64,000 nt of DNA from Candidatus Heimdallarchaeum aukensis. Its GTDB lineage: Archaea; Asgardarchaeota; Heimdallarchaeia; Heimdallarchaeales; Heimdallarchaeaceae. Positions 3,188-51,389 of the stretch are shown here, piece after piece (position 1 is the first letter of the stretch; each line of letters opens with the position of its first letter). A program made the position numbers and the translations under genes. The notes below the pieces were generated by a model. The model ran no database searches and was not told where the DNA came from. It saw only the letters and a program-made list of their open reading frames with translations. The stretch covers positions 128,001 to 192,000 of the forward strand of contig CP084166.1 of the NCBI GenBank assembly GCA_021513695.1, read 5' to 3'.

Positions 3188-3298
3188 ACATAAAAATCTT
3201 TATTCTTCAATGTCTTACTAATATTCTTAAATTCTTTTATTAAATAAATAATAAATAATTTGCATATATTTATTAATGTCTGTTTAAAATTCACCTTT

Positions 3299-7579: not shown

Positions 7580-9333
7580 TAAAAGTGATACAAGCTGATG
7601 ATTTATTAAAAGTATATTATGACCCTATTACTGAATACAAAGTTGCTGCTTTAAGAGGGTTATCTCTTGATATTAAAGAAGGTCAGTTAGTTAGTATAAT
7701 AGGCCCTTCTGGTTCAGGTAAAACAACCTTAATTAACATTTTAGCCGGACTTGATGTTCCTACAGGTGGAAGAGTAATTGTTAAGGGTCAACAATTAGAT
7801 AAAATGACAGAAAGAGAAAGAAGAGAGTTTAGGTATTATAATATTGGTTTAATTAATCAGTTTATAAGCCAGAACTTGTTTCCAAGACTCACTGTAATAG
7901 AAAATCTGATGATACCTAAACGTATGTTTTGTCTTCCTCATGAAACAGCTAAAAAAGAAGTAGAAGAGTTACTCGAACTTTTGAGATTAAAGCATATAGC
8001 AAAGAATAATGTAGAAAAAATATCTGGAGGAGAAGCAATTCGGTTGTCTCTTGGAGTAGCCTTAGCAAAGAATCCTGATATTTTGTTGTGTGACGAACCT
8101 ACAGGTCAATTAGACAATATGCATACTAAAGAAGTAGTTGAAACTATTAAAGATGTAAATATTACCATGGGTAAAACAATACTTGTAGTTACCCACGATA
8201 TTCGCTTTAGGACTGTTTTTGAACGAAGTTTCATCATTCGTGATGGCCGTCTTGCTGGAATTAGTGTGGATATTAATAGGAATCAACTAGAATTTCTTAT
8301 GGAATCTTCTGAAATGAAGAGATCTTATGTAGACCCTTCTAATTTCGCTAGAATTCCAGATGAAATAAAACGCAGTTTAGGCATTAAAGACACTGTTGAA
8401 TATGATCTTCATCCTTCGAAAAAGATTGGTTTAATTTGGAATCCTGATTTGATAACTAGAGAAGATATTTTCCACATATTAAACAACCCAGAAGAAGAGT
8501 ATGAAGAGACAGTAGATCAAATAAGCTATGAAGATGTAGAACCTATTCTCTCTCGAAGTTTTGTACCTCCTGAAAAAGAAGAACCTATTATTAAAATAAG
8601 TAATTTGAAGAAAGGATATCCTTCTCCAGCTGGATATAATCTTGTACTAAAGGGTATTAACTTATCAATTAATAAAGGAGATTTTGTTTTTATTTCTGGT
8701 CCCAGTGGAGTAGGTAAGACTACGCTCTTTAATTGTATTTCAGGATTAGATAAGATTGATGATGGACATGTAGAAATAATGGGTTTTGATATCAAAAACC
8801 AACCAGAACCTCTTATTTCTGATTTTAGATTAAAGCACATATCTTATATCACTCAGCACAATAACCTTTTTGAACCGCTATTAGTTGAAGATAACCTTTT
8901 CTTACCTTATTTGTTTTTAGGAGAGAAGATAGATATAGATTATGCCAAAAAAATAATGAAAGAATGCTTTATTGATCATAAAATTAAGTCTTACCCTGAT
9001 GAACTTTCTGCAGGAGAAAAACAACGTGCAGCACTAGCTACTAGTTTGGCAAGGAAAACATCTATCCTTATTGCTGATGAACCCACTGCTAATCTTAATT
9101 CTGAACTTGCCCGTTCAATAATTAATCTTTTTATGGATATATCTAAGCTAGAGCAAAAAACAGTTATTATCTGTTCTCATGATTTGAGTTTATTACGTCC
9201 AGGATTTAGACATATTCGTCTATCAGATGGTCAGATAGCGGAAGATTATCGTGTAACAAAAGAGCAATTACAAGAGATTATTACAGAATACCTTAGCATT
9301 CAAAAGAACAAAAAAAATGAATCTATTACGTAA
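7576..9333 (+). CDS. ABC transporter ATPase with two fused NBDs, locus 1
   Basis: NBD1: Walker A GPSGSGKTT, signature ISGGEAIRLS, Walker B ILLCDEPT, H-loop VVTHD. NBD2: GPSGVGKTT, LSAGEKQRAA, ILIADEPT, ICSHD. A ~110-aa inter-NBD linker contains ARIPDEIKRSLGIKDTVEYDL (AbrB/SpoVT-like pattern). The GTG at 7576 overlaps the permease stop; an alternative GTG lies at 7585. Confidence 0.9.
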   Translation: MIKVIQADDLLKVYYDPITEYKVAALRGLSLDIKEGQLVSIIGPSGSGKTTLINILAGLDVPTGGRVIVKGQQLDKMTERERREFRYYNIGLINQFISQNLFPRLTVIENLMIPKRMFCLPHETAKKEVEELLELLRLKHIAKNNVEKISGGEAIRLSLGVALAKNPDILLCDEPTGQLDNMHTKEVVETIKDVNITMGKTILVVTHDIRFRTVFERSFIIRDGRLAGISVDINRNQLEFLMESSEMKRSYVDPSNFARIPDEIKRSLGIKDTVEYDLHPSKKIGLIWNPDLITREDIFHILNNPEEEYEETVDQISYEDVEPILSRSFVPPEKEEPIIKISNLKKGYPSPAGYNLVLKGINLSINKGDFVFISGPSGVGKTTLFNCISGLDKIDDGHVEIMGFDIKNQPEPLISDFRLKHISYITQHNNLFEPLLVEDNLFLPYLFLGEKIDIDYAKKIMKECFIDHKIKSYPDELSAGEKQRAALATSLARKTSILIADEPTANLNSELARSIINLFMDISKLEQKTVIICSHDLSLLRPGFRHIRLSDGQIAEDYRVTKEQLQEIITEYLSIQKNKKNESIT

Positions 9334-9818: not shown

Positions 9819-12758
9819 ATGAAAAAGTCTACACTCTTTTTTCTTCTATCTTTTCTAATTTTAAATATATCAAGTTTAATGTATGGATCATCTAATTCTA
9901 ATGTGAATAAGTATGTTGTTTCTTTAAATAGTAAGAATTTAGATTCTACAGAAGACACAATTTCATACCAAATAGAATCAAGATCTTATTCTCGCTCAAT
10001 TAGGAAAGATACTACAAACTACTATAGTTGGATAGAAAGTAGAAGCCTTTCAAGTGCAAAAGATCTAGCATTCTTCATGCTAGAGCAATTCGATTTTAAC
10101 TCAATACAAGTTACAAATGTTCATGATCTGGCTTTAGTTCACTTTGCAATAGCTTATATTGACCTTTTCTTTGCCACTTACAATCCTGATTATCTTTATA
10201 CAGCTCACTGGATTGTTAATAATAGTCTATTTTTAGATATAAACAAAAATATGATTGCTCTAGATACAAAAACTACCGACTATAAGGTATTTGCCTATGA
10301 TAATCTTTACTTGGTTTTAATGTATGAAAGATTTGCCAAAGCTTATGAAGCAACCTTTGATTTTCTAGTTGCTGATACTTTTTGGACTCTAGCTGATAAT
10401 TTGATGAACAATATTACAACTATTTTTTATGATGAAACTAATCACATTATCAAAGAATATGCTTTTATTTCAAGTACTGATTGGTCTGTTATTAATTCAT
10501 CTAGTTACACAACAGCAGAAATAGCTGGATTATACTCCATGGCTTCTCATGGTCTTAAGGATCCTACAAGCTACCATTCTCAAAGTTATGATGTAATTAA
10601 ATACTATTTCAACAACTATATTCAATATGTGAATCTAGGCGAAGGGTTCGATCGTTGGGCACCACTTAAAGGAACAAATCCGGCGATTAATGATACTCTC
10701 GCATTTACTGGAAGTGTTTTCTTGTCTTCTGCATACTTCTATGAAAGTAAGTACTTAAAGAGTCAAGGAAATACAACTTATGAAGATTTATTCTTTGTAT
10801 ATGGACAATGGTTGTTAGAGGATGCTCTAGCTATATTTTATAATTCAGAATACAATTTGCCGGTGTCAACGTATAACATTACTTCTAGCACTAAAGGAAC
10901 TATTATTTCAGCGTTTGATAGTACATTAGCTGCATTAGCTCTTAGAGAGTTTAATAGATACCATCTAGAGAAATATGGTTTTTCTCCAGGTGAACTTGCT
11001 ATTTCCATAATTACTACAACACAGGGTGTTTTCAAGACAGCTAATTTTTACGATCCTGGATTATCTACAGATCAAGGAATTTTTTCCTATAAAATAGATG
11101 AATATAGGAAAAACCCCTTTGTTATCAATTCAATGGCAATTTCAATGGAATTAAAGAAATATGCGTTAGCAGCTGATTTATCTGTTCCTGAATTTATTTA
11201 TACTAATGAAACTGTTGACATTTTCTGGACTATTTTCTGGAGTGAGAGCACAAATATCTTTAGTTACTCTAATGCCTCTTTTGCTACAAGTTTTGATTTT
11301 ACAATAGACAGTGTTCTTAATTTCACAGCTAACGATACTATAATAATAAATACATTTTCCATTGACGCTGTCCAAGTTACAGAACCCACTAGTTTCTATG
11401 TAAACACTACAGTAAGTGAAGGAGGAGATTACTACCCGAGATTCACCATTTCTATAGGTGAAACAACTGTAATTGATCATGAAAGTAGCATTTACGTTTT
11501 AAGAGAATTAAGGGTATACACTGATCCATCTAGGATTCAAGCGACTCAAGGGGTTGATGAATATTTAGAATTCTCTATCTTATGTGAAGATGAAAAAGGT
11601 ATTTCAGTACCAAAAGTTTCTTTATCTCTAACTTGGCTCGGTAATACTACTAATGTAATTTCAAACAATGCTGGTTCATATGATTTTAAAATGTCAGTGA
11701 AAGATATTTTAGCTCTACCAGAATTTACAAACAATCCTGATGAAAATCCAAGATTTGATTTCGAAATATATGCAACTAAAGATGGGTTCGTTGAATTTTG
11801 GTTAATTAAAACCATAACAATAAGAAGAAATGCTCTTATTCTTGAACTCTCACAAGATTTAGCTGTGAAAAGAGGAAATGATTTGACACTAACTATAGGC
11901 GTACAACCTCAAATACAAACATTAGTTCTTAATCCTAAAGCTTCAATCTATCTGAACGGTGAAGATATTTCAAATGAAGTTTCTCAAAGTATGGACCCAA
12001 GATTTGCTCCGAAGTTAATGCCTATTCCTCTTCCAGCTCAAATAACTTTACCAACAAAAGATTTGAAAGAAAATGCTAATTTAGTTATTGAGATAACAAG
12101 TAATAACTTTCCAACAGAACGTTTTGAGTATGAGATCGAAATAATACCGTTAAACACTTTTGAAGCTATTTATCAATGGTTATCTGACGTGTTCTCATCA
12201 ACTCTAGGGAAAATACTAGGTTCTCTCAGTGTTATTTGGGCAGTTCTGTGGAAACAATTCTCTCTCTATGTTCTACACATTATTAAACGCTGTCCCTATT
12301 GTGGTGAAACAGTGAAAAGAAGATATTCAACTTGTAGATATTGTGGAAACATAATTGATAGGTCAAAGTATGTTCAAACAAAAATGAAATTTTTACCTGA
12401 AGATACAGAGCATGATCATAATCCAAAAAACAATTTTAATCTTGATAAAAATCCAAGTCCAAAAGAAAATCTTAAGTCAAAAGATTCAGGTTTAACTTCA
12501 ATTCCTTTCGATGAGAACACTTATACAGAGCCTAAGTCTCCTTCTGAAGATACTTATACAGAGCCTAAGTCTCCTTCTGAAGATACTTATACAGAGCCTA
12601 AGTCTCCTTCTGAAGATACTTATACAGAGCCTAAGTCTCCTTCTGAAGATACTTATACAGAACCTGAGCCTTCTTCTGAAGATGCTTATACAGAACCTGA
12701 GCCTTCTTCTGAAGATACTTATACAGATTCAGAAAAAGATGAAAGCAATTGGTTTTAG
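9819..12758 (+). CDS. Large secreted/surface protein with C-terminal TM anchor, cytosolic zinc ribbon and repeat tail
   Basis: Signal peptide MKKSTLFFLLSFLILNISSLMYG and a ~800-aa ectodomain with many N-x-S/T sequons. TM segment ILGSLSVIWAVLWKQFSLYVLHII is followed by CPYCGETVKRRYSTCRYCGN (CxxC-x10-CxxC) and then 11-aa repeats TYTEPKSPSED. Confidence 0.75.
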   Translation: MKKSTLFFLLSFLILNISSLMYGSSNSNVNKYVVSLNSKNLDSTEDTISYQIESRSYSRSIRKDTTNYYSWIESRSLSSAKDLAFFMLEQFDFNSIQVTNVHDLALVHFAIAYIDLFFATYNPDYLYTAHWIVNNSLFLDINKNMIALDTKTTDYKVFAYDNLYLVLMYERFAKAYEATFDFLVADTFWTLADNLMNNITTIFYDETNHIIKEYAFISSTDWSVINSSSYTTAEIAGLYSMASHGLKDPTSYHSQSYDVIKYYFNNYIQYVNLGEGFDRWAPLKGTNPAINDTLAFTGSVFLSSAYFYESKYLKSQGNTTYEDLFFVYGQWLLEDALAIFYNSEYNLPVSTYNITSSTKGTIISAFDSTLAALALREFNRYHLEKYGFSPGELAISIITTTQGVFKTANFYDPGLSTDQGIFSYKIDEYRKNPFVINSMAISMELKKYALAADLSVPEFIYTNETVDIFWTIFWSESTNIFSYSNASFATSFDFTIDSVLNFTANDTIIINTFSIDAVQVTEPTSFYVNTTVSEGGDYYPRFTISIGETTVIDHESSIYVLRELRVYTDPSRIQATQGVDEYLEFSILCEDEKGISVPKVSLSLTWLGNTTNVISNNAGSYDFKMSVKDILALPEFTNNPDENPRFDFEIYATKDGFVEFWLIKTITIRRNALILELSQDLAVKRGNDLTLTIGVQPQIQTLVLNPKASIYLNGEDISNEVSQSMDPRFAPKLMPIPLPAQITLPTKDLKENANLVIEITSNNFPTERFEYEIEIIPLNTFEAIYQWLSDVFSSTLGKILGSLSVIWAVLWKQFSLYVLHIIKRCPYCGETVKRRYSTCRYCGNIIDRSKYVQTKMKFLPEDTEHDHNPKNNFNLDKNPSPKENLKSKDSGLTSIPFDENTYTEPKSPSEDTYTEPKSPSEDTYTEPKSPSEDTYTEPKSPSEDTYTEPEPSSEDAYTEPEPSSEDTYTDSEKDESNWF
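12519..12727 (+). repeat. In-frame 33-nt tandem repeat (6 full units plus a partial unit)
   Basis: The unit acttatacagagcctaagtctccttctgaagat starts at 12519, 12552, 12585 and 12618 (four perfect copies). Variant units (gaacctgagccttct) start at 12651 and 12684, and a partial unit starts at 12717. It encodes TYTEPKSPSED / (T/A)YTEPEPSSED. Confidence 0.9.
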
Positions 12759-17112: not shown

Positions 17113-19200
17113 TTAAACACTCATTGTGAGGGTTTCATTAAATTGAGGGACAACTAGATCTTTGTGTTTAATAGTAATATTCTCTGGAGTATGAACCATT
17201 ATTTTCTTCCCATTAAGTTCTGAAATAAACTTATCCAAATTTCTAGGAGTAGTGTGTCCACTTATTTGTAGATTGTAAATTTGCTGAGAGTATTGATTTA
17301 AAGCTACAGGATGATTTGTTTTTAATGAGTAGCCTAAAGTTTCAGGGGCTTGATAACCACAGATTATTACTCCAACATCATCATTATCTCTTGTTTCATC
17401 TAAGAGCAATCTAGAGGTTCCTCCTTGAAGCATTCCATTTCCTGCAATTACAATATCTCCATCTTCAAATTCGTCAGCGTTCATACTTTTTAGTAATGTA
17501 TGATCTCCTGAAATACCCATTAATTTTGTTATTTCACTAGCTAACCCAACAATTTTTACATTGTGTTCTTTTGTTAAACGTAGTTTTTCTAAAAGTGTAT
17601 ACATTTCCTGTGCTCTTCCAACAGAAAAAGCTGGGATAATTACCTTTTTATTCTGTTTAACGGCATTTAAAACAGTTGTTTCATTATCAACCTTTTTTAG
17701 ATTTCTATTATAGTATGTTCCATCAAAAATGGTTACATCGGCATCGGTAGGAAATTCAGCTCCTTTGAAAAGATAACTTTTTTCTACTTTAAAATCTCCA
17801 GTAAACAAAATTCTCTTTCCGAATATTTCAATTAAATATCCATAACTTCCAAATACATGAGAAGAAGGAATAGGAGTAATTAAGAACTCAGGAGAAATCT
17901 CTATAGATTTTTTAGGTTTAAGTGGATTAAATCTATTAAAGAAATGAATTAATGTTGATTCACTTTTTATTGCTTTTAGGTATGGTGATAATAACTTTTC
18001 ATCAGGTATTCCTTTTAACATTGTTGAAGTGTTGAAAAGTAACTTTTCTCCTATTACTTTTGTATTTACACTTCCATACCATCTTTTTTCTTCATCAATA
18101 TTTACTAAATAAGGTAGAGCTCCAATATGATCTAAATGAGCATGGGTCACAAGTATTGCTTTCACAGTTCTCAAAGAAGGATGCCATCGAGGAATAGAAT
18201 AGTTGCTAACACTCATCCCATAATCTAGTAAAATGGCATCGTTATTATGTTGAATAAGTATAGCCATATTTCCAATTCCTCCACCACCTAAAAATGTAAT
18301 TCGTACTTTTTGGGCTAGTTTATGGCAAGAATAAGCTTTTTTCGAAGCAAATTCTTTAATTAACTTTGGAGGAGTATTTGCTAATTCTTCTAATTTTACT
18401 ATTCTAGGTTCTACTTTTTCTCTTATTTTCTCAAAGAATGGTTTGTATGTAATGGGGACAATTGGGTATTTACTTTTATTTAAAAGATTTTCAATCTTTT
18501 TTTGAACTTCTGGAATTGATGTTTTTTTATCCAGAGAAAGTTCTGAAATAATAAATTCACTATATCTTAAATCTAGTTCAGATAGTAGCTTATAATCTAT
18601 AAAAAAATCTAGAAATTCTAGCACTTCTGTAGGAAAATTTGGAATAAATTCTTCTAAATAGTTAGATTTTTCTTGTAATAGCTTAACCATTTTTTCTAAT
18701 TTTTCTGCTAATTCCTGAGTTTTTTGGTTGATGGTAAATGGTACGTTTAGTTTTTCTAAAATAGCGATGAATTCTGAAAAAGATCTAGGTTTTATACCCA
18801 TATCTCTACAAAAGTTTAGATACTGAAAGTAATCAATCTCTCTTTTTTTTACTTTCTTGGTTGAATAAATTAGAAAGAACAATATTATATTTTCATGTTT
18901 CAGACTATCTGTAAGCTGTAAATGTTGAAAAACCTCCTTTACAAGTTTAATATCGATTAAATCCTTTGCATACAAAGTAAATAAAACAGCAAGAAATTGT
19001 TCTCTTTGTTCTATGTCAATAGGTGTATTCCATGAAAGATTGAAGATATCTCCTATTGTTTTTGGGATTTCTTCAATTTCTCCTTTTTCTAGTATTCTAC
19101 TAAAATGTTTAACTTGCGTAATTAACTCTTCTTCTATTTGGGGTTCCTTTTCACCATTTAACAAAAATTCAATAATATTTTTTCCTGCTTGAATACTCAT
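17113..19200 (-). CDS. Metallo-beta-lactamase / beta-CASP family nuclease with a ~290-aa uncharacterised N-terminal domain
   Basis: MBL motif VTHAHLDHIGALPYL (HxHxDH), FDGTYYNR (EsTy-like) and C-terminal ISGHTTPRNLDKFISEL (beta-CASP SGHA-like). I could not see KH GxxG motifs in the N-terminal region. Confidence 0.75.
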   Translation of the reverse strand: MSIQAGKNIIEFLLNGEKEPQIEEELITQVKHFSRILEKGEIEEIPKTIGDIFNLSWNTPIDIEQREQFLAVLFTLYAKDLIDIKLVKEVFQHLQLTDSLKHENIILFFLIYSTKKVKKREIDYFQYLNFCRDMGIKPRSFSEFIAILEKLNVPFTINQKTQELAEKLEKMVKLLQEKSNYLEEFIPNFPTEVLEFLDFFIDYKLLSELDLRYSEFIISELSLDKKTSIPEVQKKIENLLNKSKYPIVPITYKPFFEKIREKVEPRIVKLEELANTPPKLIKEFASKKAYSCHKLAQKVRITFLGGGGIGNMAILIQHNNDAILLDYGMSVSNYSIPRWHPSLRTVKAILVTHAHLDHIGALPYLVNIDEEKRWYGSVNTKVIGEKLLFNTSTMLKGIPDEKLLSPYLKAIKSESTLIHFFNRFNPLKPKKSIEISPEFLITPIPSSHVFGSYGYLIEIFGKRILFTGDFKVEKSYLFKGAEFPTDADVTIFDGTYYNRNLKKVDNETTVLNAVKQNKKVIIPAFSVGRAQEMYTLLEKLRLTKEHNVKIVGLASEITKLMGISGDHTLLKSMNADEFEDGDIVIAGNGMLQGGTSRLLLDETRDNDDVGVIICGYQAPETLGYSLKTNHPVALNQYSQQIYNLQISGHTTPRNLDKFISELNGKKIMVHTPENITIKHKDLVVPQFNETLTMSV

Positions 19201-19291: not shown

Positions 19292-20251
19292 TCATTTTTC
19301 TTCTTCATCATCATTTAACAAGCTACTGAAGGCTGCTCTTAATTCATTTTGAAGTGATTCTTTCATTTGCTTTGTAGATTTTTTAGGAGTAGCTGGTGTA
19401 GGCTCTGATACTGGGCTTACTTCATCTGATTCTTCCATTCGTTGAGATCTTCTTTGTTGAGCAGCTTTAACTTCTGAAAGTAAAGCTTGTTGTGGAGAAA
19501 GAGGTCTTGATGCTTGTGCAGCTTGTTCTCTCTCTTTTTTATGAGCATCAGGATCAACTTTCTTTAATTTTGCTTTTGCTTCCAGAATTGCTGAAGCTGT
19601 TGGTCCACCTAATGGTCCCACACCTCCCCCACCCATAGGTCCTGGGCCAGGAGCTGGTGATTGTTGCACTGGAGCTTTTTGTAATTTTGCTTTTGCTTCC
19701 AGAATTGCTGAAGCTGTTGGTCCACCTAATGGTCCCACACCTCCCCCACCCATAGGTCCTGGGCTAGGTGCTGGTGATTGTTGCACTGGAGCTTTTTGTA
19801 AAGATTTGGCAGCATTAGCTATCTCGCTAGCAAATCCTGGAGAACCTGGCCCTGCTCCTAGATTAGGAGCTGGTGCAGGAGCTCCACTTAAATTTGGTGT
19901 TGGAGCTGGTCCCCCTAGATTAGGCGCAGAAGTCGCTCCACCCCCTATATTTGGCGCTGGAGCTGGTCCAGAACTCAATTTAGGTGCAGAAGGTATCGAG
20001 GGACTTGGAGTACTTCCACCTATACTTGGAGCACTAGGCATTCCCATTCCTCCTCCAGGTGCTCCACCTAATTTATTCTCCAAAGCTGTTATTCGCGCAT
20101 CTAATTCGTTAATAGCATCTTCAATTCTTTCTGTAGATTTGATCATAATACTTCCAAAGTTTTCAAGAAGTCTAGTTAATTTTGCAATCGCAGTTTTCGT
20201 AGGGGAAGAACCTTCAGATAATAAATTGTCTAGGTACTCATCAATTGACAT
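19292..20251 (-). CDS. Coiled-coil plus Pro/Gly-rich low-complexity protein with repeated amphipathic LQKAP/LKKV segments
   Basis: N-terminal helix ...RIEDAINELDARITALENKLGG. Then AP.PNLGG-type repeats, followed by FASEIANAAKSLQKAP, SAILEAKAKLQKAP and SAILEAKAKLKKVD, and an acidic tail. The track start at 20254 is TTG; the ATG is at 20251. Confidence 0.7.
   Translation of the reverse strand: MSIDEYLDNLLSEGSSPTKTAIAKLTRLLENFGSIMIKSTERIEDAINELDARITALENKLGGAPGGGMGMPSAPSIGGSTPSPSIPSAPKLSSGPAPAPNIGGGATSAPNLGGPAPTPNLSGAPAPAPNLGAGPGSPGFASEIANAAKSLQKAPVQQSPAPSPGPMGGGGVGPLGGPTASAILEAKAKLQKAPVQQSPAPGPGPMGGGGVGPLGGPTASAILEAKAKLKKVDPDAHKKEREQAAQASRPLSPQQALLSEVKAAQQRRSQRMEESDEVSPVSEPTPATPKKSTKQMKESLQNELRAAFSSLLNDDEEEK
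19566..19799. repeat. Two tandem 117-nt near-identical repeats inside the Pro/Gly-rich gene
   Basis: aattttgcttttgcttccagaattgctgaagctgttggtccacctaatggtccc... starts at 19566 and again at 19683. The copies differ only around ccaggagct versus ctaggtgct. Each encodes a 39-aa unit QKAPVQQSPAP.PGPMGGGGVGPLGGPTASAILEAKAKL. Confidence 0.9.
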
Positions 20252-20335
20252 CAAATATCAAAATATACTAGACTGAAAACTATAAAAAGACTTTGTTAAT
20301 GCATAATGAAAAAGAAAAATTAATTGTTCTTGAAA

Positions 20336-21425: not shown

Positions 21426-22961
21426 CTAAAGGAATTTAGGTGGTTCAGGGATATTATCTAAATATTTAAGGAAAGGTTCTGGCCATTCGTCAGTTTTTAA
21501 GCCTTTTTGAGAAACAAAGGCAGTAATAAATCGTTCAAAACTTCCTCCTCCACAGCCTGACCAAAGATCTTTTCCTCCTTCAGTTTTTACACTAAATCCT
21601 CTTGGATATTTGTCTCCTATAATAGAAATATTCTGGATTTCTAACCACTCACTTTCTTCTCTAGAACCTCTATAAGGCATATAAGTTTCGAAGTCAATTG
21701 TACCAACAAGCATGTCTTCTTCCTCTTCATCTTTTGCAGATTGTTCAAGCCACCAAGGCATAACTTTTGCTTCTCGGACTTCTAAATCAAAAATTCTGTC
21801 AAAAACTTCTCTTAATTTCTTTCTTGTTTCAGTTGCTACCTCTTTTACTTGTTTTGGAGTGCCAATAAACAATGTTTCAATTCTATGTAATTCATCTACT
21901 CTTTCAAAACCATAAGCAGAGCCAGATTCATATCTATATGTTGGTCCACTCCAATCATAAACTAGTATAGGTAAGCTCTCTTTAGCAATTGTTTTTCCTT
22001 GAAGCCAAGCCCAGAAAGGAGGACATTGAGCATAAGACAATCCTCCTATTGGAGGAGTGATTTTTTCATATAGTTTGTCTTCAGGAATTGTTTTTGTTAT
22101 TGTTATATAATCAGCTATTTCTTCAAAAAATTCAGGGTTTGCACTTTTAGGTTGAACAACAAAGTACGGTTCAAACCCTCCTTGAAACATTCCTTCTGCA
22201 TGACCAGAGCGTAGCCAAATTGACCAGTCCACAAGCTTTGGTATCATCATTTTCTGATAGTTTAGAGGAGTATATACATGTTCAACCATTATCTTCTTTA
22301 TTGCTTCAATAACTGCTGTAATGGAAGGAGTTAAAATCCATTGATTTCTATAATTTGTTCTTTTAATCCATCCTTCTTTTTCAAGAAGTTTTGTTGGATT
22401 TTTGGAAGTAAGAAGTTTCTTTTCACCTGAATACCAAGCAACTGTATGGTGTTCTTTTTTAGCTCCATGATAATCTTTAGATATTTTATCATTGATTCTT
22501 CTTAATATCCGTTCTATTGCTCCTTTTTCAACAAAATCTTCTTCTATTTCAGGGTCTATCTCAATTCTTGCCCAAGGTTCATCCTCTTTTTTGAAAAACT
22601 CAAGCTTTGATGTTAAAGGTAAAGTAAATTCTCTTTTAGGTTCAAGTTTAAGTTTTTTCTCTATCTCATATTTGATAAATTTAAAACCTCTTAGACCAAT
22701 TTTGTATTTTTTGCCAATTTCTTGTGCTAATTGTTTGCGCATGCGTAAAACTATAGTGTGAGGAGCATATGAGTCAACTGAATTAAGAGAAAGTACAATC
22801 TTCTTATCCTTTATTTCAGAAAGTTCAATAGTGAATTTTCCTTTTGGACGTTTAGAATTTAAATCTTGTTCATATTTTGAAATAAACTGTGTTAAATGTT
22901 CTATACTCTCTTTAGGTAATTCTCCGCTTGTGATAAAATATAGTTCTAAAGTTTGTTTCAT
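21426..22961 (-). CDS. serS: Seryl-tRNA synthetase, methanogen (atypical) type
   Basis: The full-length 511-aa protein matches my recollection of Methanosarcina-type SerRS block by block: RMRKQLAQEIGKKYKIGLRGF, GAKKEHH, KEGWIKRT, IPKLVDWSIWLRSGHAEG, IGGLSYAQCPPFW, TYRYESG, GFERVDELHRIE, WLEIQNISIIGDKYPRGFSVK, LWSGCGGGSFERF. The Zn-ligand Cys/Glu/Cys positions appear to be present. Confidence 0.8.
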   Translation of the reverse strand: MKQTLELYFITSGELPKESIEHLTQFISKYEQDLNSKRPKGKFTIELSEIKDKKIVLSLNSVDSYAPHTIVLRMRKQLAQEIGKKYKIGLRGFKFIKYEIEKKLKLEPKREFTLPLTSKLEFFKKEDEPWARIEIDPEIEEDFVEKGAIERILRRINDKISKDYHGAKKEHHTVAWYSGEKKLLTSKNPTKLLEKEGWIKRTNYRNQWILTPSITAVIEAIKKIMVEHVYTPLNYQKMMIPKLVDWSIWLRSGHAEGMFQGGFEPYFVVQPKSANPEFFEEIADYITITKTIPEDKLYEKITPPIGGLSYAQCPPFWAWLQGKTIAKESLPILVYDWSGPTYRYESGSAYGFERVDELHRIETLFIGTPKQVKEVATETRKKLREVFDRIFDLEVREAKVMPWWLEQSAKDEEEEDMLVGTIDFETYMPYRGSREESEWLEIQNISIIGDKYPRGFSVKTEGGKDLWSGCGGGSFERFITAFVSQKGLKTDEWPEPFLKYLDNIPEPPKFL

Positions 22962-23031: not shown

Positions 23032-24774
23032 TTATTTGTCATTGATTTTTACTTGTAAGAAATACTCAATTATTTCTTTCAAATCTTTCTTTGTTATACG
23101 TTTATCTGACTGAATTCCACCTTTTTCTAAGACTATGTGTCTCATTCCTGGTCTTAACAAACTAAGATCATGCGAGCAAATAATTACTGTTGTTTGTAAT
23201 TTTTCTGCAACATCCATTAATACATCAATTATGGCTCTTGCCAAATCACTATCTAAATTAGCTGTTGGTTCATCTCCTATTAGAATAGGCGTTTTTCTTG
23301 TTAATGCAAGTGATAAGGAAGCTCGTTGTTTTTCTCCAGCAGAAAGTTCATCAGGATAAGCTTCTAACTTATGTTTTATTTGACATTCCTCAACCATATT
23401 TAGAGAGTACTCTTCATCATAGTCTAATTTAGAAAACAGATAAGGGACAAGAAGATTATCTTTAACTGTAACAGGTTCAAAGAGGTTATTATGCTGAGTG
23501 ATATAAGCAATGTTCTTTAATCTAAACATTGATGTTTCATATTCATCTTTATCATGAAGTGAAACATTATTGATAATTATTTCTCCTTTATCTGCTTTTA
23601 CAAGTCCTGTAATGCAATTAAAAAGGGTAGTTTTTCCTACTCCACTGGGCCCAGTAATCATTACGAAATCTCCTTTTTTAACTTCTAAGTTAATGTTTTT
23701 TATTACTTGATTATAACCTGCTGGAGAATGATATCCTTTGGAAACTCCTTTTAATTGCAAAATATTTTCTCTACTCTCTATGAAGTTGAATTTTCTGCTA
23801 ATAATTTTTTCAATTTCTTCATAAGAAATTTCTCGAGATTCTTTAATCGCTTCGTCAACTGGTTTATTCAAAATCTTGTATATTTCTTCTCTATTTACTA
23901 TATCAGGATTCCAAAATAAACCAAGAGATCCAGCAGGATGAGCGTCAAATTCTACTACATCATAAAGCTTTGTTTTCATCTTTATTTGATCAGGTATTCT
24001 AAGAAGGCTATTTTTATCTAAGTAAGCCCGATTATTTGTAGAAGAACTTGTCATAAATTCAAGTTTATCTTTTTCCATATCTTGACTTACTCCTACTAAT
24101 CTCCCATCTCTAATGATAAAGCTATGTTTGAATACATTTCTAAAGCGGATATCGTGAGTCACAACAACAATAGTTTTACCCGTGTTCTCGTTAATATCTT
24201 TTATAGTATTAATTACTTCTTTAGTATGCTCAGTATCTAATTGACCTGTAGGCTCGTCAAGAAGTAGAAATTTAGGATTTTTAGCTAAGGCTGCACCTAA
24301 AGATAAACGCATAGCCTCTCCACCAGAAATGCGAGAAACGAGATTATTTCGCACATGATATAAGTTTAACAGTTCTAAAATTTCCTTGACTTCTCTTCTG
24401 GCTTGCTCTCTTGGAATGTAAAATAATTTTTTGTGTATCATAAGATTCTTTTCAACAGAGAGATTTGAGAATAAGTTATCGCTAATATTTTGATTGATCA
24501 ACCCAATGTATCTGAATCTGAACTCTCTTAGTTGTTTTTGAGACATTTTTTCTAAATGATGGTTGTCAATAATGACTGATCCTCCAGTAATATCTTCTAA
24601 GCCAGATAAAATCTTGATTAATGTGGTTTTTCCTGCTCCAGAAGGACCAACTATACTTACAAGATCACCTTTTTCTACATATAAATCTAATCCTCTTAAA
24701 GCAGCAACTTTATAATCAGAATGAGGGTCGAAATAAATTTTAAATAAATCAATACATTGTATCATTTTTATCAC
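23032..24774 (-). CDS. ABC transporter ATPase with two fused NBDs, locus 2 (paralogue of 7576-9333)
   Basis: GPSGAGKTT / ISGGEAMRLS / LLLDEPT / VVTHD, then GPSGVGKTT / LSAGEKQRAS / ILIGDEPT / ICSHD. It is collinear with the locus-1 ATPase, including the linker LRIPDQIKMKTKLYDVVEFDAHP. The GTG at 24774 overlaps the permease stop; an ATG lies at 24765. Confidence 0.9.
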   Translation of the reverse strand: MIKMIQCIDLFKIYFDPHSDYKVAALRGLDLYVEKGDLVSIVGPSGAGKTTLIKILSGLEDITGGSVIIDNHHLEKMSQKQLREFRFRYIGLINQNISDNLFSNLSVEKNLMIHKKLFYIPREQARREVKEILELLNLYHVRNNLVSRISGGEAMRLSLGAALAKNPKFLLLDEPTGQLDTEHTKEVINTIKDINENTGKTIVVVTHDIRFRNVFKHSFIIRDGRLVGVSQDMEKDKLEFMTSSSTNNRAYLDKNSLLRIPDQIKMKTKLYDVVEFDAHPAGSLGLFWNPDIVNREEIYKILNKPVDEAIKESREISYEEIEKIISRKFNFIESRENILQLKGVSKGYHSPAGYNQVIKNINLEVKKGDFVMITGPSGVGKTTLFNCITGLVKADKGEIIINNVSLHDKDEYETSMFRLKNIAYITQHNNLFEPVTVKDNLLVPYLFSKLDYDEEYSLNMVEECQIKHKLEAYPDELSAGEKQRASLSLALTRKTPILIGDEPTANLDSDLARAIIDVLMDVAEKLQTTVIICSHDLSLLRPGMRHIVLEKGGIQSDKRITKKDLKEIIEYFLQVKINDK

Positions 24775-27700
24775 TCCAAATTCATAGGTTGATATCTAGC
24801 AAATTGCATTTTCATTGTCATGTAGAATATAGAGAAAAACATAACAGGAATAACTAGAAAAATTATCACCGCAATAACTGGTGGAAACTGAATAGGATTA
24901 GGCAATATCTCTTGCCTTAGGCTTCTTAACACTCTTCGTATAATTTCAGTTATTGTAAAACCTACTGCTGTACCACTGATTATTCCAGGAAGAATTCCAA
25001 TCATGAATAATTCAAAGGAACTCATTTGAATTATAAGTTTGTTAGGTATACCCATCTTCTTAAGAATGTCATGCTTACCCATTCTTCTTTGCAATATCTT
25101 AAGAGGATTACTCATACTTGTAAATACAATAGAGATTATGCAAATTAATAATGAAAAAACAAATATTGAAACTATCGAAGCATAAAAGGGAAGATTGGTA
25201 CGGTAAATTTCTTGTTCTTCTTCAACTATGTTAATGATTTCTAGATTGTATTTCTCTTCTAAACTTGAAGAAAATTGAACTATATCCGTTTTTTCTTCAA
25301 CATTTATTAATAATCTATAACCAAATACTCCAAAAACGGTTAAACTCTCTTCTATTTTCTCATAATTGCTCTCTGTTAGAACAATCATAGGAGTTCCTCC
25401 CGATTCTCGTGGACCATAAGGATAGATTATGGGGAAATAGTCAAACTCATCTATTATCTTCACTTCTACGTCATCGAATGAGTATTTCATTTCGCTAATA
25501 TCAAAGAAAAACTTGAAGTTGCTAGAAACAATTATCTCTTTATCGTTATCCAGTTGAGGAATAATATCATCCCAATTTTTGTAAAATCTTTCTGAAGGTT
25601 TATACGCTGTATTATAGAAATCCGAAGCTTTTTGAATCACTAAAAGATTTAACTGTCTTCCTCCAAACATTGCGTCAACTTGAGAAACGTTACATATGCC
25701 GATTACTTCGGGAAGAATTTTAATTTCATCACTGATACTGGAATTAACGTTATTGTAATTGCTTATATACATATCAGCTCCTGCCATAAAGTAAGAATCT
25801 TTTATTATCCCATTCTGCATTGTTAGAGGAGCAGCTATTGCAGGAACAGCAATTCCTACCAAAAGTAAATAGGTCAAGAAAATATCATTAAACAATGAAA
25901 GATCTGTTTTTACTTCAACTAATGAGAAAGTGAATATATTCTTCTTAATTTTCCACAAAGTTTTGCTTAAAACTGCCATAATAAAAGAGTGAAGATCTTT
26001 TAAAATTAGTCCTAAACCGAATAAAGATATCATTACTCCAATTCCAATAATATACACGAAAATGTTTATCAATTGGTTATCTGAAGAAGAAAGATTTTCG
26101 CTGAAAGTTAGATATAGTTTTAGTCCTCCGTAAATTATTCCTCCTCCAACAGCAATAATAATGAAGTTGCCGATTTTCACCTTTTTAAGAAAAGAAACAA
26201 ATTTGTTATAATCTCTTATTTGCTCCTTCTTTATTTTTGCCATTCTTATTGTTAAAGGTAAAGTAATAATTATTAAACCAAAGAACGAAATTGTGAAAAT
26301 TAAAGGAAGATTCTTTAACGAAGGCATTGTAGAACTTAGATTGAAAGAGACAAATCTATCTAATTTTAATAAAATGGGAATAATCAGTATTGCTTCTCCT
26401 AAACCTAAAAAGGTTGCAATAAGTGATTCTACAAATTTCATTACTGTGTTCAGATAAACTATTTTTCCAGTTGACAACCCTTTGGAACGGAGAATTTTAA
26501 TTTCTTCATCAAAACTTGTAGCAAATAAGGCATTTGTTTCAAAAATCAAGAATAGTGCAAGGTAAAGGACAGGTATTGATAATAAAACAATTAGAAATTG
26601 AGTAGAGGAATAGGAAGGAACTAAACTTTGCAATACTAGTTTTAATTCAGTTGAAATAACCCAAGAACCACCTAAATCAAATTTTACAGGATGATCGTAA
26701 CTTGGTTGTAAAATGTCAAAATCATTTATTAGTTTTCCAATATTTTTAGAATTAACTAAAGAAAAATCATAGAAAAATTGAACTATACCATCAAATTTCA
26801 GATGTTGAACTGGCATAGTTTTTAAACTTGACAGATAAAAATCATTGAAAGTTATTGCACCGATGTATTGTGAAATCATTTCTATGAGATCATATGATAA
26901 TCCATAATCTCTACTCATCTTAAATAATGAAGGTTCTGTTGGTTTTTCGTAAATCCCTACAATAGTCATGTTCACTCTTTCTTTTAAACCTCCAACAGAG
27001 ACATCTGCACCAACAAAGACAATAGTGTCGTTTATTGTTTTATTGAAAGCTGTCGCTGTAGTTTGATCGATTATAACTTCATTGATTTTATCAGGTAACC
27101 TACCTGAAACTAGAATTCTTCCCAAAATATCCTTATAATTAGTAGATAAGGAATAATATGATTCTACGCTCTGAACTGTACTCTCAGTATCCTTCTTAAA
27201 TAGAATTCGCATTTGCATTGAATAATCAGAATCAATAATTATATCCTTCAAAACTTCAGTTTTAAAAGCGATAGTTGAAAGAATCTCGTTCATAACAGCA
27301 GAAGAAAAATTCTCGTAAAAAGGTGAGTATTCATTTACTCTCCCCCATCTCGCGGAAAGAACATTATGCATTCTCGAAAACGTAGCTGAAGCTTTTTCAT
27401 CTTCTTCTAAATGAGCATCTTCTAAATATTGTTGTATCATCATGTTTTGTTTATATGAAAAGAGTGAAGAAGAAGAGAAAACAATCATTGCCAAAATTGA
27501 TAAGCCTAGTATTGTTATTATAGCTCTCTTTTTGTTTGATCTCCATAAATCGAAAGGAAGACTCAATGAACTTACAATAAAAACCCATAGATTGAGAAAT
27601 ACTAAAACAAATTTACTTTTTCCAGTTTTTATAGGTCTAAATAAAAACCTAAATAGTTTTTTTCCTTGATTTACTATTTTTTTGTAAAATATGGCTATAA

Positions 27701-29045
27701 ATAGTAAGAGAATTGAGATAGCTATTGTAAATTCAATCCAATGTATTCTAAAAACATATTGAAAGAAGTTTACTAAAGTTAGATCGTAAATAACAGGTCT
27801 TATAATACTGTTGAAAGATAAATTACTATTTGAATAAATTAAAACAGAAAAGACATTAGGTTCTACTATAACTTTGTTTTCTAGTTGAGTATCATGAAAT
27901 CTCTGTGTTCTACTAACTAAAAAAGTAGTAGGAGATTGAAAATTGATATGAGTCGAGTCGAAAACCGTAATGTTTGAAGTGAAAGGAATATCAATAAATT
28001 GTTGAGTAATATTTTTTCCATTATATCTTAAAATAGTAAATTCAGTAATTAAATCAGCCTTAGAATTACTTGAATTAAGAGGTAAGTGGGGATTAGGGTT
28101 GATTAAGAATGTTATTGACGAATCAAAAGAGTAGTGATACAAGTCATCATATGAATACATTCCCAATTGAAATTCACTAAAGTTTTCAAAAGAAAGACTT
28201 TCGTTCAATTTAAAATTATGAGTATAGAATGTTGATCCTTTAATTAGAGCCAAGTTTAGTGTAGTTTGATTAAATACCGATAAATAAACATCATAATCAG
28301 TATTGAAAAGAAGATAGTTACTTAAATAAGGGTCATCGTTTATGATATATATTCCAACTAGCCTTGTTGGGAAAAACATATACTTGTACAATGCAACTAA
28401 TTTTCCATCAACAAGTAGCAATGTTTGAATGCCATTATATTCTAAATCTGTAAACCAATTTTCAGTGCTTGAAGTTCCATTTAGAAAAACTGTTAATTTT
28501 TTAAATTTAGTCTTTGGGTGCTCATCCATTGCCGATTCAAACATTGGTTCTGCAAACAGCAAATAGAAAGAGTTTTCTATAAACTGAACATTATAGATAA
28601 AATAATTTCCAAAAAAACTTGAATGGTAAATCAAGAAATTACTTTTGTTTTGTTCTGATTCCCAAACATACATTTCAATATTGAATTGCCCAAAGTTTCC
28701 ATGATATGAATAGAACAATACTATTTTGTTATCAATTCTAAAGGTGTCAAAAATTGTTCCTGGACTTAAATCTGTTTTAATCTTTGATATATTTCCTTCA
28801 AACAAATGAAAGATAGTGAAGGATTGATTTTCTAATTCCATTTTTATGAATAAGTGTAATCTTTCTTGAGTGTCTAACACCGCTCTTGTTTCTAAATCTA
28901 CTATTGTTTCATAAGCTTGAAAATAACCTATAACCTCTTCTTTAACTTCTGGATTTTCAGTTATATCAGCACTTATTAGCAAAGAATTATAATTTAAACT
29001 TAATATAGACGCTATTAAAATAAACACGAAATATTTTTTTTCCAT
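24771..29045 (-). CDS. Giant MacB/FtsX-type ABC permease, locus 2 (paralogue of 3299-7579)
   Basis: Architecture matches locus 1: signal MEKKYFVFILIASILSLNYNSLLISA, an aromatic/Asn-rich ectodomain, and two FtsX-like modules (EIKILRSKGLSTGKIVYLN..., ILKKMGIPNKLIIQMSSFELFMIGILPGIISG). The track start at 29195 overlaps the divergent MFS gene, so the ATG at 29045 is preferred. Confidence 0.8.
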   Translation of the reverse strand: MEKKYFVFILIASILSLNYNSLLISADITENPEVKEEVIGYFQAYETIVDLETRAVLDTQERLHLFIKMELENQSFTIFHLFEGNISKIKTDLSPGTIFDTFRIDNKIVLFYSYHGNFGQFNIEMYVWESEQNKSNFLIYHSSFFGNYFIYNVQFIENSFYLLFAEPMFESAMDEHPKTKFKKLTVFLNGTSSTENWFTDLEYNGIQTLLLVDGKLVALYKYMFFPTRLVGIYIINDDPYLSNYLLFNTDYDVYLSVFNQTTLNLALIKGSTFYTHNFKLNESLSFENFSEFQLGMYSYDDLYHYSFDSSITFLINPNPHLPLNSSNSKADLITEFTILRYNGKNITQQFIDIPFTSNITVFDSTHINFQSPTTFLVSRTQRFHDTQLENKVIVEPNVFSVLIYSNSNLSFNSIIRPVIYDLTLVNFFQYVFRIHWIEFTIAISILLLFIAIFYKKIVNQGKKLFRFLFRPIKTGKSKFVLVFLNLWVFIVSSLSLPFDLWRSNKKRAIITILGLSILAMIVFSSSSLFSYKQNMMIQQYLEDAHLEEDEKASATFSRMHNVLSARWGRVNEYSPFYENFSSAVMNEILSTIAFKTEVLKDIIIDSDYSMQMRILFKKDTESTVQSVESYYSLSTNYKDILGRILVSGRLPDKINEVIIDQTTATAFNKTINDTIVFVGADVSVGGLKERVNMTIVGIYEKPTEPSLFKMSRDYGLSYDLIEMISQYIGAITFNDFYLSSLKTMPVQHLKFDGIVQFFYDFSLVNSKNIGKLINDFDILQPSYDHPVKFDLGGSWVISTELKLVLQSLVPSYSSTQFLIVLLSIPVLYLALFLIFETNALFATSFDEEIKILRSKGLSTGKIVYLNTVMKFVESLIATFLGLGEAILIIPILLKLDRFVSFNLSSTMPSLKNLPLIFTISFFGLIIITLPLTIRMAKIKKEQIRDYNKFVSFLKKVKIGNFIIIAVGGGIIYGGLKLYLTFSENLSSSDNQLINIFVYIIGIGVMISLFGLGLILKDLHSFIMAVLSKTLWKIKKNIFTFSLVEVKTDLSLFNDIFLTYLLLVGIAVPAIAAPLTMQNGIIKDSYFMAGADMYISNYNNVNSSISDEIKILPEVIGICNVSQVDAMFGGRQLNLLVIQKASDFYNTAYKPSERFYKNWDDIIPQLDNDKEIIVSSNFKFFFDISEMKYSFDDVEVKIIDEFDYFPIIYPYGPRESGGTPMIVLTESNYEKIEESLTVFGVFGYRLLINVEEKTDIVQFSSSLEEKYNLEIINIVEEEQEIYRTNLPFYASIVSIFVFSLLICIISIVFTSMSNPLKILQRRMGKHDILKKMGIPNKLIIQMSSFELFMIGILPGIISGTAVGFTITEIIRRVLRSLRQEILPNPIQFPPVIAVIIFLVIPVMFFSIFYMTMKMQFARYQPMNLE

Positions 29046-29169
29046 ACCAATCTCCCATCGGATATGCCTTTTTTTGAACACTTTAAAATTTTCCTCTGTA
29101 AAAATATTTTTTAAATGAATAAATACTTCAAGAAAAGAATTTATATATTGCAAGTTCTTGTTAAGCAAA

Positions 29170-30492
29170 ATGTCCTCAAAAACCTCTAAAGACACAGAAA
29201 AATTAAGAAGTAAACTGAAAGACTTGTTATCAATACCCAGTTCTCTGTTAATAGTTTTTCTGACAACATTGTTAATGAGAGCCAGTTTTTATTTGGCAAT
29301 TGCAATCTTGAATTATCCTCATTATTTAACTCATCTTTCTTCAGTTCAAAAAACATGGATTTTTATTGTTTATCCATTAAGTGAATTATTAACTGTATTA
29401 TTTTTTGGAGTGCTATCTGATAAGATTGGGCGAAAGATTATTTATTACATTGGTCTAGGCACAACTGCGATAGCGATTTTATTATTTTCCTTTGTTTCAG
29501 AATTTGCATTATTATTGGTTGTTTCTTCAATATTGGGAATTGGTGCAGCTGCTCAAGTCGCCTCTACCTTATCTATTGTAGCAGATGAAGCTCCTGAAGA
29601 CAAAAGAGGGCGATTTATGGGTTTTTACGATGCGATGACACTTATAGGTTTAGGTTTAGGATTTGGAGGAGGTTTCCTCATTATGGAAATCTTGTTTGGG
29701 AATGAAGATGTTACGACGATGACTAGTTCCCAGCAAACTGAGTTTTACAAAAGAGTTGCAACAACGAGCGAAGTTCTTTTTGTAATTGCAGCTGTGTTGC
29801 TTTTTATTTCATTAGTAGTAGCAGTGGTATTGTTAAAAGGAAAACAATTTGTAAAATTCGGTAAAGAACAAACAATAAAAGAGAAGGTCAGTTTTATAAT
29901 TAAAGATAAAAATTTACGTTACTTGATGCCTGTTTGGGTACCAATAATCTGTCTTTATGCAATTGTATTGACTAATGCTGAAGAATTAGCTCACACACTG
30001 AACCTACATGACGTCAAACTACTTATCGTTCTTGCAGTTATTTTCGGTTCTATACTGATAGGCTTTCCTCTTAATGGAATATTAAGTGACAAAATAGGAA
30101 GAAAACCTTTTCTGTATATAGGCATGTTCTCTTTTGCCGGATTTGTTACAGTTCTAATAATTGGTGCAGAACAAGCTAAAGTTAACAATCCAAATCTACT
30201 ATTGTATCTATCTCCATTGATGTTTGTTCTAGGTATCGGTTGTGGAGCTTTTCCTCCAGCAGCACTAGCATTGTTAACTGATCTATCTCCAAAAGAAAAT
30301 TATGGGTCAAGTATGGGTGCTTATTCTGTAGTTTATGGAACTGGAATGATTATTGGTCCTCTCTCTGCAGAATATTCACAATCAGTTGGAGGTTTATTTG
30401 GATTAATCATTTTGATTTGGATTCTTTGTGCAATTAGTGTTGTTGGAACATTATTAGTTCCAAAACATCTTTTGAGCAAAGGATCTCATTAG
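29170..30492 (+). CDS. MFS transporter
   Basis: About 12 predicted TM helices. MFS motif A occurs in both halves: GVLSDKIGRKIIYYIGL and GILSDKIGRKPFLYIGM. The track TTG start at 29158 is likely an over-extension; the ATG is at 29170. Confidence 0.85.
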   Translation: MSSKTSKDTEKLRSKLKDLLSIPSSLLIVFLTTLLMRASFYLAIAILNYPHYLTHLSSVQKTWIFIVYPLSELLTVLFFGVLSDKIGRKIIYYIGLGTTAIAILLFSFVSEFALLLVVSSILGIGAAAQVASTLSIVADEAPEDKRGRFMGFYDAMTLIGLGLGFGGGFLIMEILFGNEDVTTMTSSQQTEFYKRVATTSEVLFVIAAVLLFISLVVAVVLLKGKQFVKFGKEQTIKEKVSFIIKDKNLRYLMPVWVPIICLYAIVLTNAEELAHTLNLHDVKLLIVLAVIFGSILIGFPLNGILSDKIGRKPFLYIGMFSFAGFVTVLIIGAEQAKVNNPNLLLYLSPLMFVLGIGCGAFPPAALALLTDLSPKENYGSSMGAYSVVYGTGMIIGPLSAEYSQSVGGLFGLIILIWILCAISVVGTLLVPKHLLSKGSH

Positions 30493-37968: not shown

Positions 37969-37983
37969 TTTGAAGTGACAAAT

Positions 37984-42174: not shown

Positions 42175-42301
42175 TAGATTTACTTATTTTTCTTTATTTT
42201 TAGACTTTATCTTTATTGAAATTTTTTTTGATTAAATTTACTATAAAATTAACAAAGGAAAACAATAGATTAAAATATTTAAAAAATTAAAATATACTGA
42301 T

Positions 42302-45524: not shown

Positions 45525-45649
45525 TAGATTTACTTATTTTCTTTATTTTTAGACTTTATCTTTATTGAAATTTTTTTGATTAAATTTACTATAAAATTAA
45601 CAAAGGAAAACAATAGATTAAAATATTTAAAAAATTAAAATATACTGAT

Positions 45650-51307: not shown

Positions 51308-51389
51308 TTATTTATGCTCATAAAAAGTTTTTTCTTTTAGACGTAACAAGATAATATTTTTAAGAATAGTAAATATAATGTAAATAAGA

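Follow-up and report, generated by a model that had tools for sequence, protein, structure and literature searches.

The 64000-nucleotide stretch of the Candidatus Heimdallarchaeum aukensis genome analysed in the present study (assembly GCA_021513695.1, contig CP084166.1, positions 128001–192000; hereafter the window) carries at 19292–20251, on the minus strand, a complete gene for a family-specific and largely disordered protein, as judged from the listing of open reading frames (ORFs), its orthologues and substitution counts. The ORF encodes 319 residues and a stop codon, with the ATG at 20251 and the stop at 19292–19294. Its G+C content is 44%, compared with 30% across the window, and the protein consists of 13% alanine, 13% proline, 12% glycine and 11% serine. 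A hexamer that resembles a TATA box and reads TTTATA in the coding direction (20282–20287, minus strand, as are all features of the gene given below) was noted by eye approximately 33 nt upstream of the ATG and may be part of a promoter of its own; the same hexamer is present in the assemblies L004 and L005. When the gene was compared with those of near-identical assemblies, 18 synonymous and 4 non-synonymous substitutions were counted in one case and 21 and 3 in the other, an excess of synonymous changes that indicates purifying selection. Thus the ORF is a real and conserved gene under purifying selection. In L004 (6001–6866) and L005 (2528–3446) (GCA_054383455.1; JGI 3300033149) the same gene is broken into two or three ORFs by deletions (97 bp in one assembly, 25 and 16 bp in the other) that fall within a 117-bp repeat described below. 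The codons past the apparent frameshifts still differ mainly synonymously, suggesting that the breaks are assembly errors due to collapse of the repeat, which apparently also gave rise to the truncated 'hypothetical proteins' P0002 and P0026 in the databases. An overlapping ORF on the plus strand (19806–20276; 156 residues) is a shadow of the Gly/Pro/Ala (GGN/CCN-rich) codons and should not be annotated.

The family is uncharacterised and is conserved across the Heimdallarchaeaceae. Orthologues were found at 23 loci in GTDB species genomes of this family, a lower bound on the number of species; among these genomes are the original Heimdall AB_125 and that of Ca. Heimdallarchaeum endolithica PR6, whose chromosome is closed. 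A word-indexed search returned 15 relatives, every one from metagenome-assembled genomes (MAGs) of Heimdallarchaeia, and restricting the query to the N-terminal domain brought in just two further fragments. Searching 1.84 billion cluster representatives with a HMMER profile of the family gave 14 proteins at E≤1e-3, which comprised family members and their fragments, a divergent orthologue (P0020), two relatives (P0027 and P0025) and one false positive (P0029). P0029 was a low-complexity match, and P0025 is a fragment of the 452-residue P0027. No match recognisable as eukaryotic, or as a eukaryotic actin regulator, was found in this library of representatives, which carries no names. P0027 is labelled Kariarchaeaceae and is the one divergent relative from outside the Heimdallarchaeaceae; the protein family is restricted to the Heimdallarchaeia. 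NCBIfam gave no match for the family, neither a Pfam nor an NCBIfam model covers it, and the scans against both gave no confident match to any unrelated family. The family comparisons below rest on 32 members, of which 16 sequences make up alignment A1; A4 is a further alignment. The relative P0027 (L003:6083–7441; Kariarchaeaceae MAG GCA_054388035.1) retains the N-terminal domain, APS/APN repeats and an 'LKAPD' helix, and has two copies of MSQMQELKNAFSGGGDQSHL in place of the unit with LTKVDPDEH that is found in the family. It also contains a WAVE-like stretch, EIMGVLSRRRDRKEEEAEVDAEEEE, and a long Lys/Glu-rich tail that terminates in DLQSRLKGAFS, an echo of the C-terminal helix of the family. 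A gene for an Arf-family GTPase lies approximately 3 kb downstream of P0027.

AlphaFold2 was run on the monomer with the orthologue alignment, and the resulting model, with a mean predicted local distance difference test (pLDDT) value of 55, is informative solely for the positions of helices. These were predicted at residues 3–11, 19–62 (pLDDT ~80), 139–152, 180–191, 219–230, 234–247, 253–274 and 293–317 (pLDDT 78–89), with everything outside them disordered. The predicted helices coincide with conserved islands, as the N-terminal domain, the helix units and the C-terminal helix alternate with variable linkers in the 32 orthologues. A Foldseek search of the model against the PDB gave a single meaningless match (E=5.8). 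Residues 1–62 (20066–20251) form the N-terminal domain, a putative oligomerisation coiled coil according to the model, the heptad pattern and the conservation. The domain consists of a short helix (3–11) and a long heptad-patterned helix (19–62), and 33 of its positions are invariant among 16 sequences (SID.YLD.LLS...P...AI.KLT.L.EN.G.IM..STER.ED.I..L..RI...E...G.). An N-terminal coiled coil had been proposed for the protein in an earlier reading of the DNA (hereafter the sequence-only reading), and the helix is supported by its pLDDT and by hydrophobic residues at a spacing of 3–4 over residues 22–61. Pfam matches to the N-terminal domain were of the generic coiled-coil type only. The domain is followed by a disordered tract rich in Pro, Ala, Gly and Ser (residues 63–139; 19835–20065; pLDDT <50), in which a repeat of the form x[AT]Px[LI][GS] is found six times at a spacing of 9–15 residues (SAPNLGG and PAPNLGA are examples); the orthologues have two to six copies of a proline repeat APN[LI][SG]. 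The sequence-only reading was correct about these repeats but had estimated the tract at 90 residues, compared with the 77 found here.

The ORF and the three segments quoted in that reading are real, as FASEIANAAKSLQKAP (residues 140–155), ..SAILEAKAKLQKAP (179–194) and ..SAILEAKAKLKKVD (218–232) were all found verbatim. The first of these is helix unit 1 (19787–19834), with a predicted helix at 139–152. All 16 sequences of A1 share its 'AA..L.KAP', the family form being ..SADLMKAA..LQKAP, and the LQKAP ending makes up 28 of the 35 LxK[AT]P-type unit endings across the 32 members. In the family consensus, the PG-rich linker after unit 1 closes with SPFG. A second conserved unit, SA.DIQDVRSGLTKVDPDEHRKER, is present across the family. 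In the studied protein it is represented by helix unit 3 with a basic extension (residues 218–242, TASAILEAKAKLKKVDPDAHKKERE; 19526–19600; predicted helices 219–230 and 234–247), which is orthologous to SAxDIQDVRSGLTKVDPDEHRKER in other members, and in A4 this region has L, K, V, D, P, H, K and R at invariant positions. Helix unit 2 (residues 179–194, TASAILEAKAKLQKAP; 19670–19717; predicted helix 180–191) is a duplicated copy. Tandem Repeats Finder detected a 117-bp tandem duplication at 19558–19801 (2.1 copies, 96% identical), and the two 39-residue copies, identical at 36 of 39 residues, yield units 2 and 3 with their PG-rich linkers. The same duplication is carried by the orthologue of Ca. 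Heimdallarchaeum endolithica PR6 (312 residues; 85% identity in the best aligned segment) and is missing in the other 28 members, which have two units each. Thus three amphipathic segments are present, as the sequence-only reading had stated, but they represent two conserved units plus a copy that arose by tandem duplication.

Both unit types fit the motif [IL]xx[AIV]xxxLxK[AVI](D)P, an 11-residue amphipathic helix. Two or three copies of this motif are present in every one of the 32 members, compared with an expectation of 0.086 per 319 residues drawn from the other ORFs of the window, showing that these features lie above the level of chance. The hydrophobic residues at positions i, i+3, i+7 and i+10 form the stripe of one continuous, Pro-capped amphipathic helix, and AlphaFold2 continues the helix through the LxK. 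A unit of helix and LxK[VA] is kept in all 32 orthologues. The LKKV signature that had been read from the studied protein is found literally in eight of the 32 members, the window protein included, but the tetrad is LTKV in 23 of 32 and the first unit ends in LQKAP, so that one Lys only is invariant across the unit endings.

The C-terminal part of the protein contains three further elements. A basic amphipathic helix (residues 249–271, RPLSPQQALLSEVKAAQQRRSQR; 19439–19507; predicted helix 253–274) has the consensus L..EVK.AL.KR.SR in 31 of the 32 members and shows a resemblance, which is not significant, to the 'C' element of the WASP-family VCA region. It is followed by an acidic patch (residues 272–284, MEESDEVSPVSEP; 19400–19438), delineated from the alignment of members, which is D/E-rich and has a Phe at its end in 28 of 32 members, the Phe being missing in the clade of the window protein. 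The last element is a C-terminal helix with an acidic tail (residues 290–319, KKSTKQMKESLQNELRAAFSSLLNDDEEEK; 19295–19384; pLDDT 78–89). Here STKQMKE.LQ.ELR.AFSSLL is nearly invariant in all 32 members, no other segment of the protein being conserved as strongly, and KSTKQMKEALQGELRDAFSSLL together with the acidic tail forms the nearly invariant end of the family.

The module order described in the sequence-only reading, a putative oligomerisation helix, a Pro-rich tract, tandem amphipathic helices and a charged tail, is therefore present and conserved. On the basis of this layout and of the predicted helices, we consider it fairly probable that the protein is an oligomeric multivalent motif scaffold that recruits or concentrates globular partners. 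The N-terminal helix would self-associate as a putative coiled coil, the oligomer would display many motif copies on flexible arms, and the resulting multivalent adaptor would recruit and concentrate globular partner proteins. The recent gain in copy number of a helix unit fits a module whose valency matters. As for the identity of the partner, actin together with profilin is the leading specific candidate, although we regard this assignment as rather doubtful; it was proposed because of the order of the modules and because the helices carry L-x-K-V. In that case, actin monomers would be bound by the amphipathic helices and then delivered or clustered by the oligomer. Actin, profilin and gelsolin have been published for Asgard archaea, in which a nucleation or elongation factor of the present type is not yet known, and assays are available for Heimdall actin and profilin. 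The likeness of the studied protein to Ena/VASP, tandem-WH2 and WASP-type factors is, however, one of analogy and not of demonstrable homology. The tests set out in the next paragraphs weigh against an actin client, as all of the similarity to WH2, VCA and CCDC53 was at noise level.

For WH2, the Pfam model PF02205 matched none of 16 whole proteins and none of eight isolated peptides, each a helix or a C-terminal half, using hmmscan at E≤10. When the PDB was searched with profiles of the full-length alignment (A1) and of the C-terminal half (A4), at E≤10, the searches returned coiled-coil or unrelated chains only, with no WH2, WASP, thymosin or actin-binder chain among them. The pattern LLxxI-(4-9)-LKK[VT], a regular expression for the WH2 consensus, was found in none of the 32 members. 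Within the L-[KR]-[KR]-[VT] tetrad, the L, the second K and the V/A are conserved, and the second basic position is usually occupied by Thr or Gln. Natural WH2 variants such as LNKT occur. In WH2 proteins the contact with G-actin is made in a cleft formed by subdomains 1 and 3. Compared with WH2/thymosin-β4 (PF02205; Spire, Cobl), the units are similar in being tandem amphipathic helices of ~15–20 residues in a disordered context that close with L-x-K-[VAT] and then charged residues, with a literal LKKV in the clade of the window protein. They differ in that the helix is continuous, whereas in WH2 a helix is followed by an extended LKKT, and in that the first unit of the studied protein ends in KAP and no profile matches. 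The short spacing against which the sequence-only reading had cautioned was also confirmed, since the Leu stands three residues after the last hydrophobic residue of the helix, whereas the distance is 5–8 in WH2. Taken together, these comparisons do not support WH2 membership. A WH2-like LKKT linker has been described in Asgard two-domain gelsolins, where it lies on actin in a crystal structure (Akil et al. 2022, PMC9433394). The two cases share the group of organisms and a short L-[KR]-[KRH]-[VT] element; however, the gelsolins have an extended linker between folded domains, whereas the studied protein has a predicted helix and no gelsolin domain.

The top Pfam match of the protein was CCDC53 (PF10152), with 21.0 bits and E=5e-4 for the window protein, below the gathering cut-off of 24.6. 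The close orthologue P0001 scored above the cut-off with 26.9 bits (E=7e-6) as a whole, and carries a precomputed PF10152 label, but its first 72 residues alone gave 17.1 bits (E=0.008). In ten further members scanned singly, no CCDC53 match was obtained for seven, the most divergent included. The N-terminal stretch of P0001 was also matched by haemagglutinin HA2, ABC_tran_CTD, BLOC1_2, Osmo_CC and Dynamitin, at E values of 0.01–0.2. Shuffled N-terminal sequences matched other Pfam families at E values of 0.03–0.08. Using hhalign, the family was aligned with real WASHC3 sequences over 20–27 columns at a probability of 1.9–2.9%, the CCDC53 alignment being entirely mammalian, and one of 100 column shuffles reached the score between the family and CCDC53. 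The stretch common to the studied family and CCDC53/WASHC3 (also HSPC300/Brk1) is an N-terminal helix of ~45 residues with E[ED]x[IL]xxLxxRIxxIExxL; in contrast, the C-terminal domain of CCDC53 is missing in the studied family. The CCDC53 match was rejected as evidence of homology, as most orthologues are unmatched, the hhalign probability is 2–3% and the N-terminal domain falls among unrelated coiled coils. The similarity to CCDC53, as judged from these profile comparisons, appears to be a generic coiled-coil likeness.

Together with the C-terminal part, this match had suggested that the protein might be a true WASP/WASH homologue, in which a CCDC53 or WASH/WAVE N-terminal helix is combined with a degenerate V-C-A region activating an Arp2/3-like nucleator. 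A VCA profile was built from the VCA regions of WASP, N-WASP, WAVE1, WAVE2, WASH and Las17, and it aligned co-linearly with IRxG-LKKV, the L..V..AL.KR basic helix and the acidic run, the Phe taking the position of the VCA Trp, at up to 8.6 bits (hmmsearch). For four sequences, 0–3 of 200 shuffles reached the score, which was not so for the other seven. With hhalign, the P value for VCA was 0.012–0.097, 2–5 of 100 column shuffles matched it, and a reversed target scored higher. The VCA alignment was rejected as evidence of homology, as its co-linear match did not stand out statistically from the shuffled and reversed controls. Furthermore, none of the 32 members has a Trp in the acidic region, and the clade of the window protein has no aromatic residue there at all. 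Compared with WASP/WAVE/WASH, the family shares the N-terminal helix, the Pro-rich tract, an LxKV helix, a basic helix ~20 residues further on and an acidic patch, which ends in an aromatic residue (Phe) in 28 of the 32 members. It differs in having Phe for Trp, no poly-Pro and an extra conserved C-terminal helix after the acidic patch. The stretch of P0027 mentioned above resembles the C-A region of WAVE. The literature describes ARPC4-like proteins from Asgard genomes, but no complete Arp2/3 complex is known there or in the host lineage. With CCDC53 unmatched in seven of ten members, hhalign probabilities of 1.9–3.6%, scores of a similar size for shuffled or reversed controls, and no recognisable eukaryotic relative, we consider true homology with WASP/WASH very improbable. 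We give equally little credence to the idea of a self-oligomerising, pre-eukaryotic factor of actin assembly, in which the short helices would bind archaeal actin and in which the N-terminal helix and the V-C-A-like tail would be distantly ancestral, or an early parallel, to those of WASP/WAVE/WASH.

The Ena/VASP proteins offer a further comparison, in that a disordered chain carries short helices besides a coiled coil and a Pro-rich tract, with oligomerisation and actin binding being putative for the studied protein. Oligomerisation supplies the valency in Ena/VASP and would do so here; however, the coiled coil is N-terminal in the studied protein and C-terminal in Ena/VASP. No EVH1/WH1 domain was found in the family by the Pfam scans, and no PPPPP profilin-binding run is present. 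Even a PPP run, as in classical profilin binding, was found in none of the 32 members, in agreement with the caution in the sequence-only reading that the prolines do not form poly-Pro. Thus, by these sequence comparisons, membership of the WH2, WASP, Ena/VASP and CCDC53 families lacks at least one tested defining feature in each case. The Kariarchaeaceae relative P0027, which is without the LTKVDPDEH unit, is another point against an actin client.

The genomic surroundings gave no indication of actin either. A tblastn search with β-actin was negative for actin genes, both in the window and at 28 related loci, and among the neighbours that were annotated there was no profilin or gelsolin domain. 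The gene instead forms part of a block in the order double ABC ATPase, seryl-tRNA synthetase (SerRS), threonine-aldolase-like protein, studied gene and β-CASP nuclease. It lies immediately upstream of the β-CASP gene on the same strand in 24 of 26 compared Heimdallarchaeaceae loci, the flanks of the other two being too short, and the block is kept at loci with as little as 42–47% identity of the nuclease. The Kariarchaeaceae relative has other neighbours. In the window, the downstream neighbour (17113–19200, minus strand) encodes a 695-residue MBL/β-CASP nuclease with an N-terminal extension of ~300 residues, which has no KH domains and shows a weak match to a Cdc6_C winged helix; the nuclease scores far below the aCPSF1 cut-off and weakly matches a Cas14 MBL-CASP model. 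An adjacency kept at such low identity raises the possibility that this aCPSF-like nuclease has the protein as its scaffold or accessory subunit, with a role in RNA processing, and eukaryotic 3′-end processing factors do include Pro/Gly-rich disordered scaffolds. However, the syntenic block holds unrelated housekeeping genes, so the adjacency may reflect slow rearrangement, and the 91-bp gap between the two genes, with T-runs and the TATA-like element, would suggest separate transcription. As the homologue in Kariarchaeaceae also has different neighbours, we consider a nuclease partner improbable.

A broader alternative is that the protein is the same kind of scaffold with a partner other than actin, for example as the hub of a lineage-specific complex or as a condensate former. 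As the sum of diffuse possibilities, we regard this as quite possible. Its prior is high, since the majority of conserved proteins that are disordered have nothing to do with actin, and it agrees with the noise-level similarity to actin-related factors and with the lack of a genomic link to actin genes. The C-terminal helix, STKQMKEALQGELRDAFSSLL, is without counterpart in WH2, VASP or WASP proteins, which also argues for such a partner. On the other hand, the module order and the L-x-K-[VA] endings are left unexplained, no partner is named, few predictions follow, and no single alternative is more specific than actin. A separate candidate is an adaptor for ESCRT/Vps4 or ubiquitin, with MIM1-like helices and MIM2- or P(S/T)AP-like proline repeats. 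The MIM1 pattern is LxxRLxxLK, which the studied helices loosely resemble, and two PSAP motifs are present in the window protein (residues 72–75 and 87–90). The literature cited for Asgard archaea reports ESCRT-I, -II and -III and Vps4. However, PSAP is replaced by APNLS in the main clade, the Arg and Leu positions of MIM1 are unmatched, and no ESCRT gene was seen in the neighbourhood. The P(S/T)AP and MIM readings were set aside because the motifs are not conserved, and an ESCRT adaptor appears extremely improbable.

An oligomeric scaffold with displayed helix motifs thus is the reading that we favour, with actin as the leading, if doubtful, client. The regulators of Asgard actin described in the literature are profilins, gelsolins and ARPC4-like proteins only; no stand-alone WH2, VASP or WASP-like Asgard factor was found there, nor anything on the studied family. 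Models of eukaryogenesis face the question of how Asgard actin filaments are nucleated, and how they are elongated, at particular sites, and the layout of the studied protein is that expected of a primitive assembly factor, making it a concrete and cheap candidate (small and taken to be soluble). If the actin-assembly reading were true, it would be the first archaeal actin nucleation or elongation factor besides gelsolins and profilins. If the link with actin fails, the protein would still be a conserved archaeal protein whose disordered chain carries short linear motifs, with a recent duplication of one motif.

Several other genes of the window deserve mention. The SerRS gene of the block (21426–22961, minus strand) encodes a class II aminoacyl-tRNA synthetase with an N-terminal tRNA_bind_4 domain, which is the rare 'methanogen-type' seryl-tRNA synthetase architecture. 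Two paralogous two-gene modules are located at 3260–9333 (plus strand) and 23032–29195 (minus strand). In both modules, the gene for a giant multi-pass membrane protein (1439 and 1474 residues) overlaps by 4 bp with that for a double ABC ATPase (585 and 580 residues); the membrane proteins are 32% identical over ~1030 residues and have no Pfam match. The two modules probably encode ABC exporters of an unusual kind, in which the permease is oversized. A segmental duplication of ~3.35 kb, in which the sampled stretches were 100% identical, was found at 41280–43417 and 44630–46765. Its copies contain a radical-SAM/Wyosine_form (Taw1/TYW1-like) gene and a gene for a 371-residue HEAT-repeat protein with equal Pfam scores, one radical-SAM copy being shorter (299 compared with 321 residues); the duplication may have arisen very recently, or it may be an artefact of the assembly. 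Two large ORFs, at 9819–12758 (plus strand; 979 residues) and 37975–39738 (plus strand; 587 residues), had no Pfam match at E≤1e-5. Finally, a gene for an Eco57I/TaqI_C-type restriction-modification methylase (47170–49161, minus strand) adjoins the genes for two paralogous TPR proteins of ~690 residues (49244–53474, plus strand).

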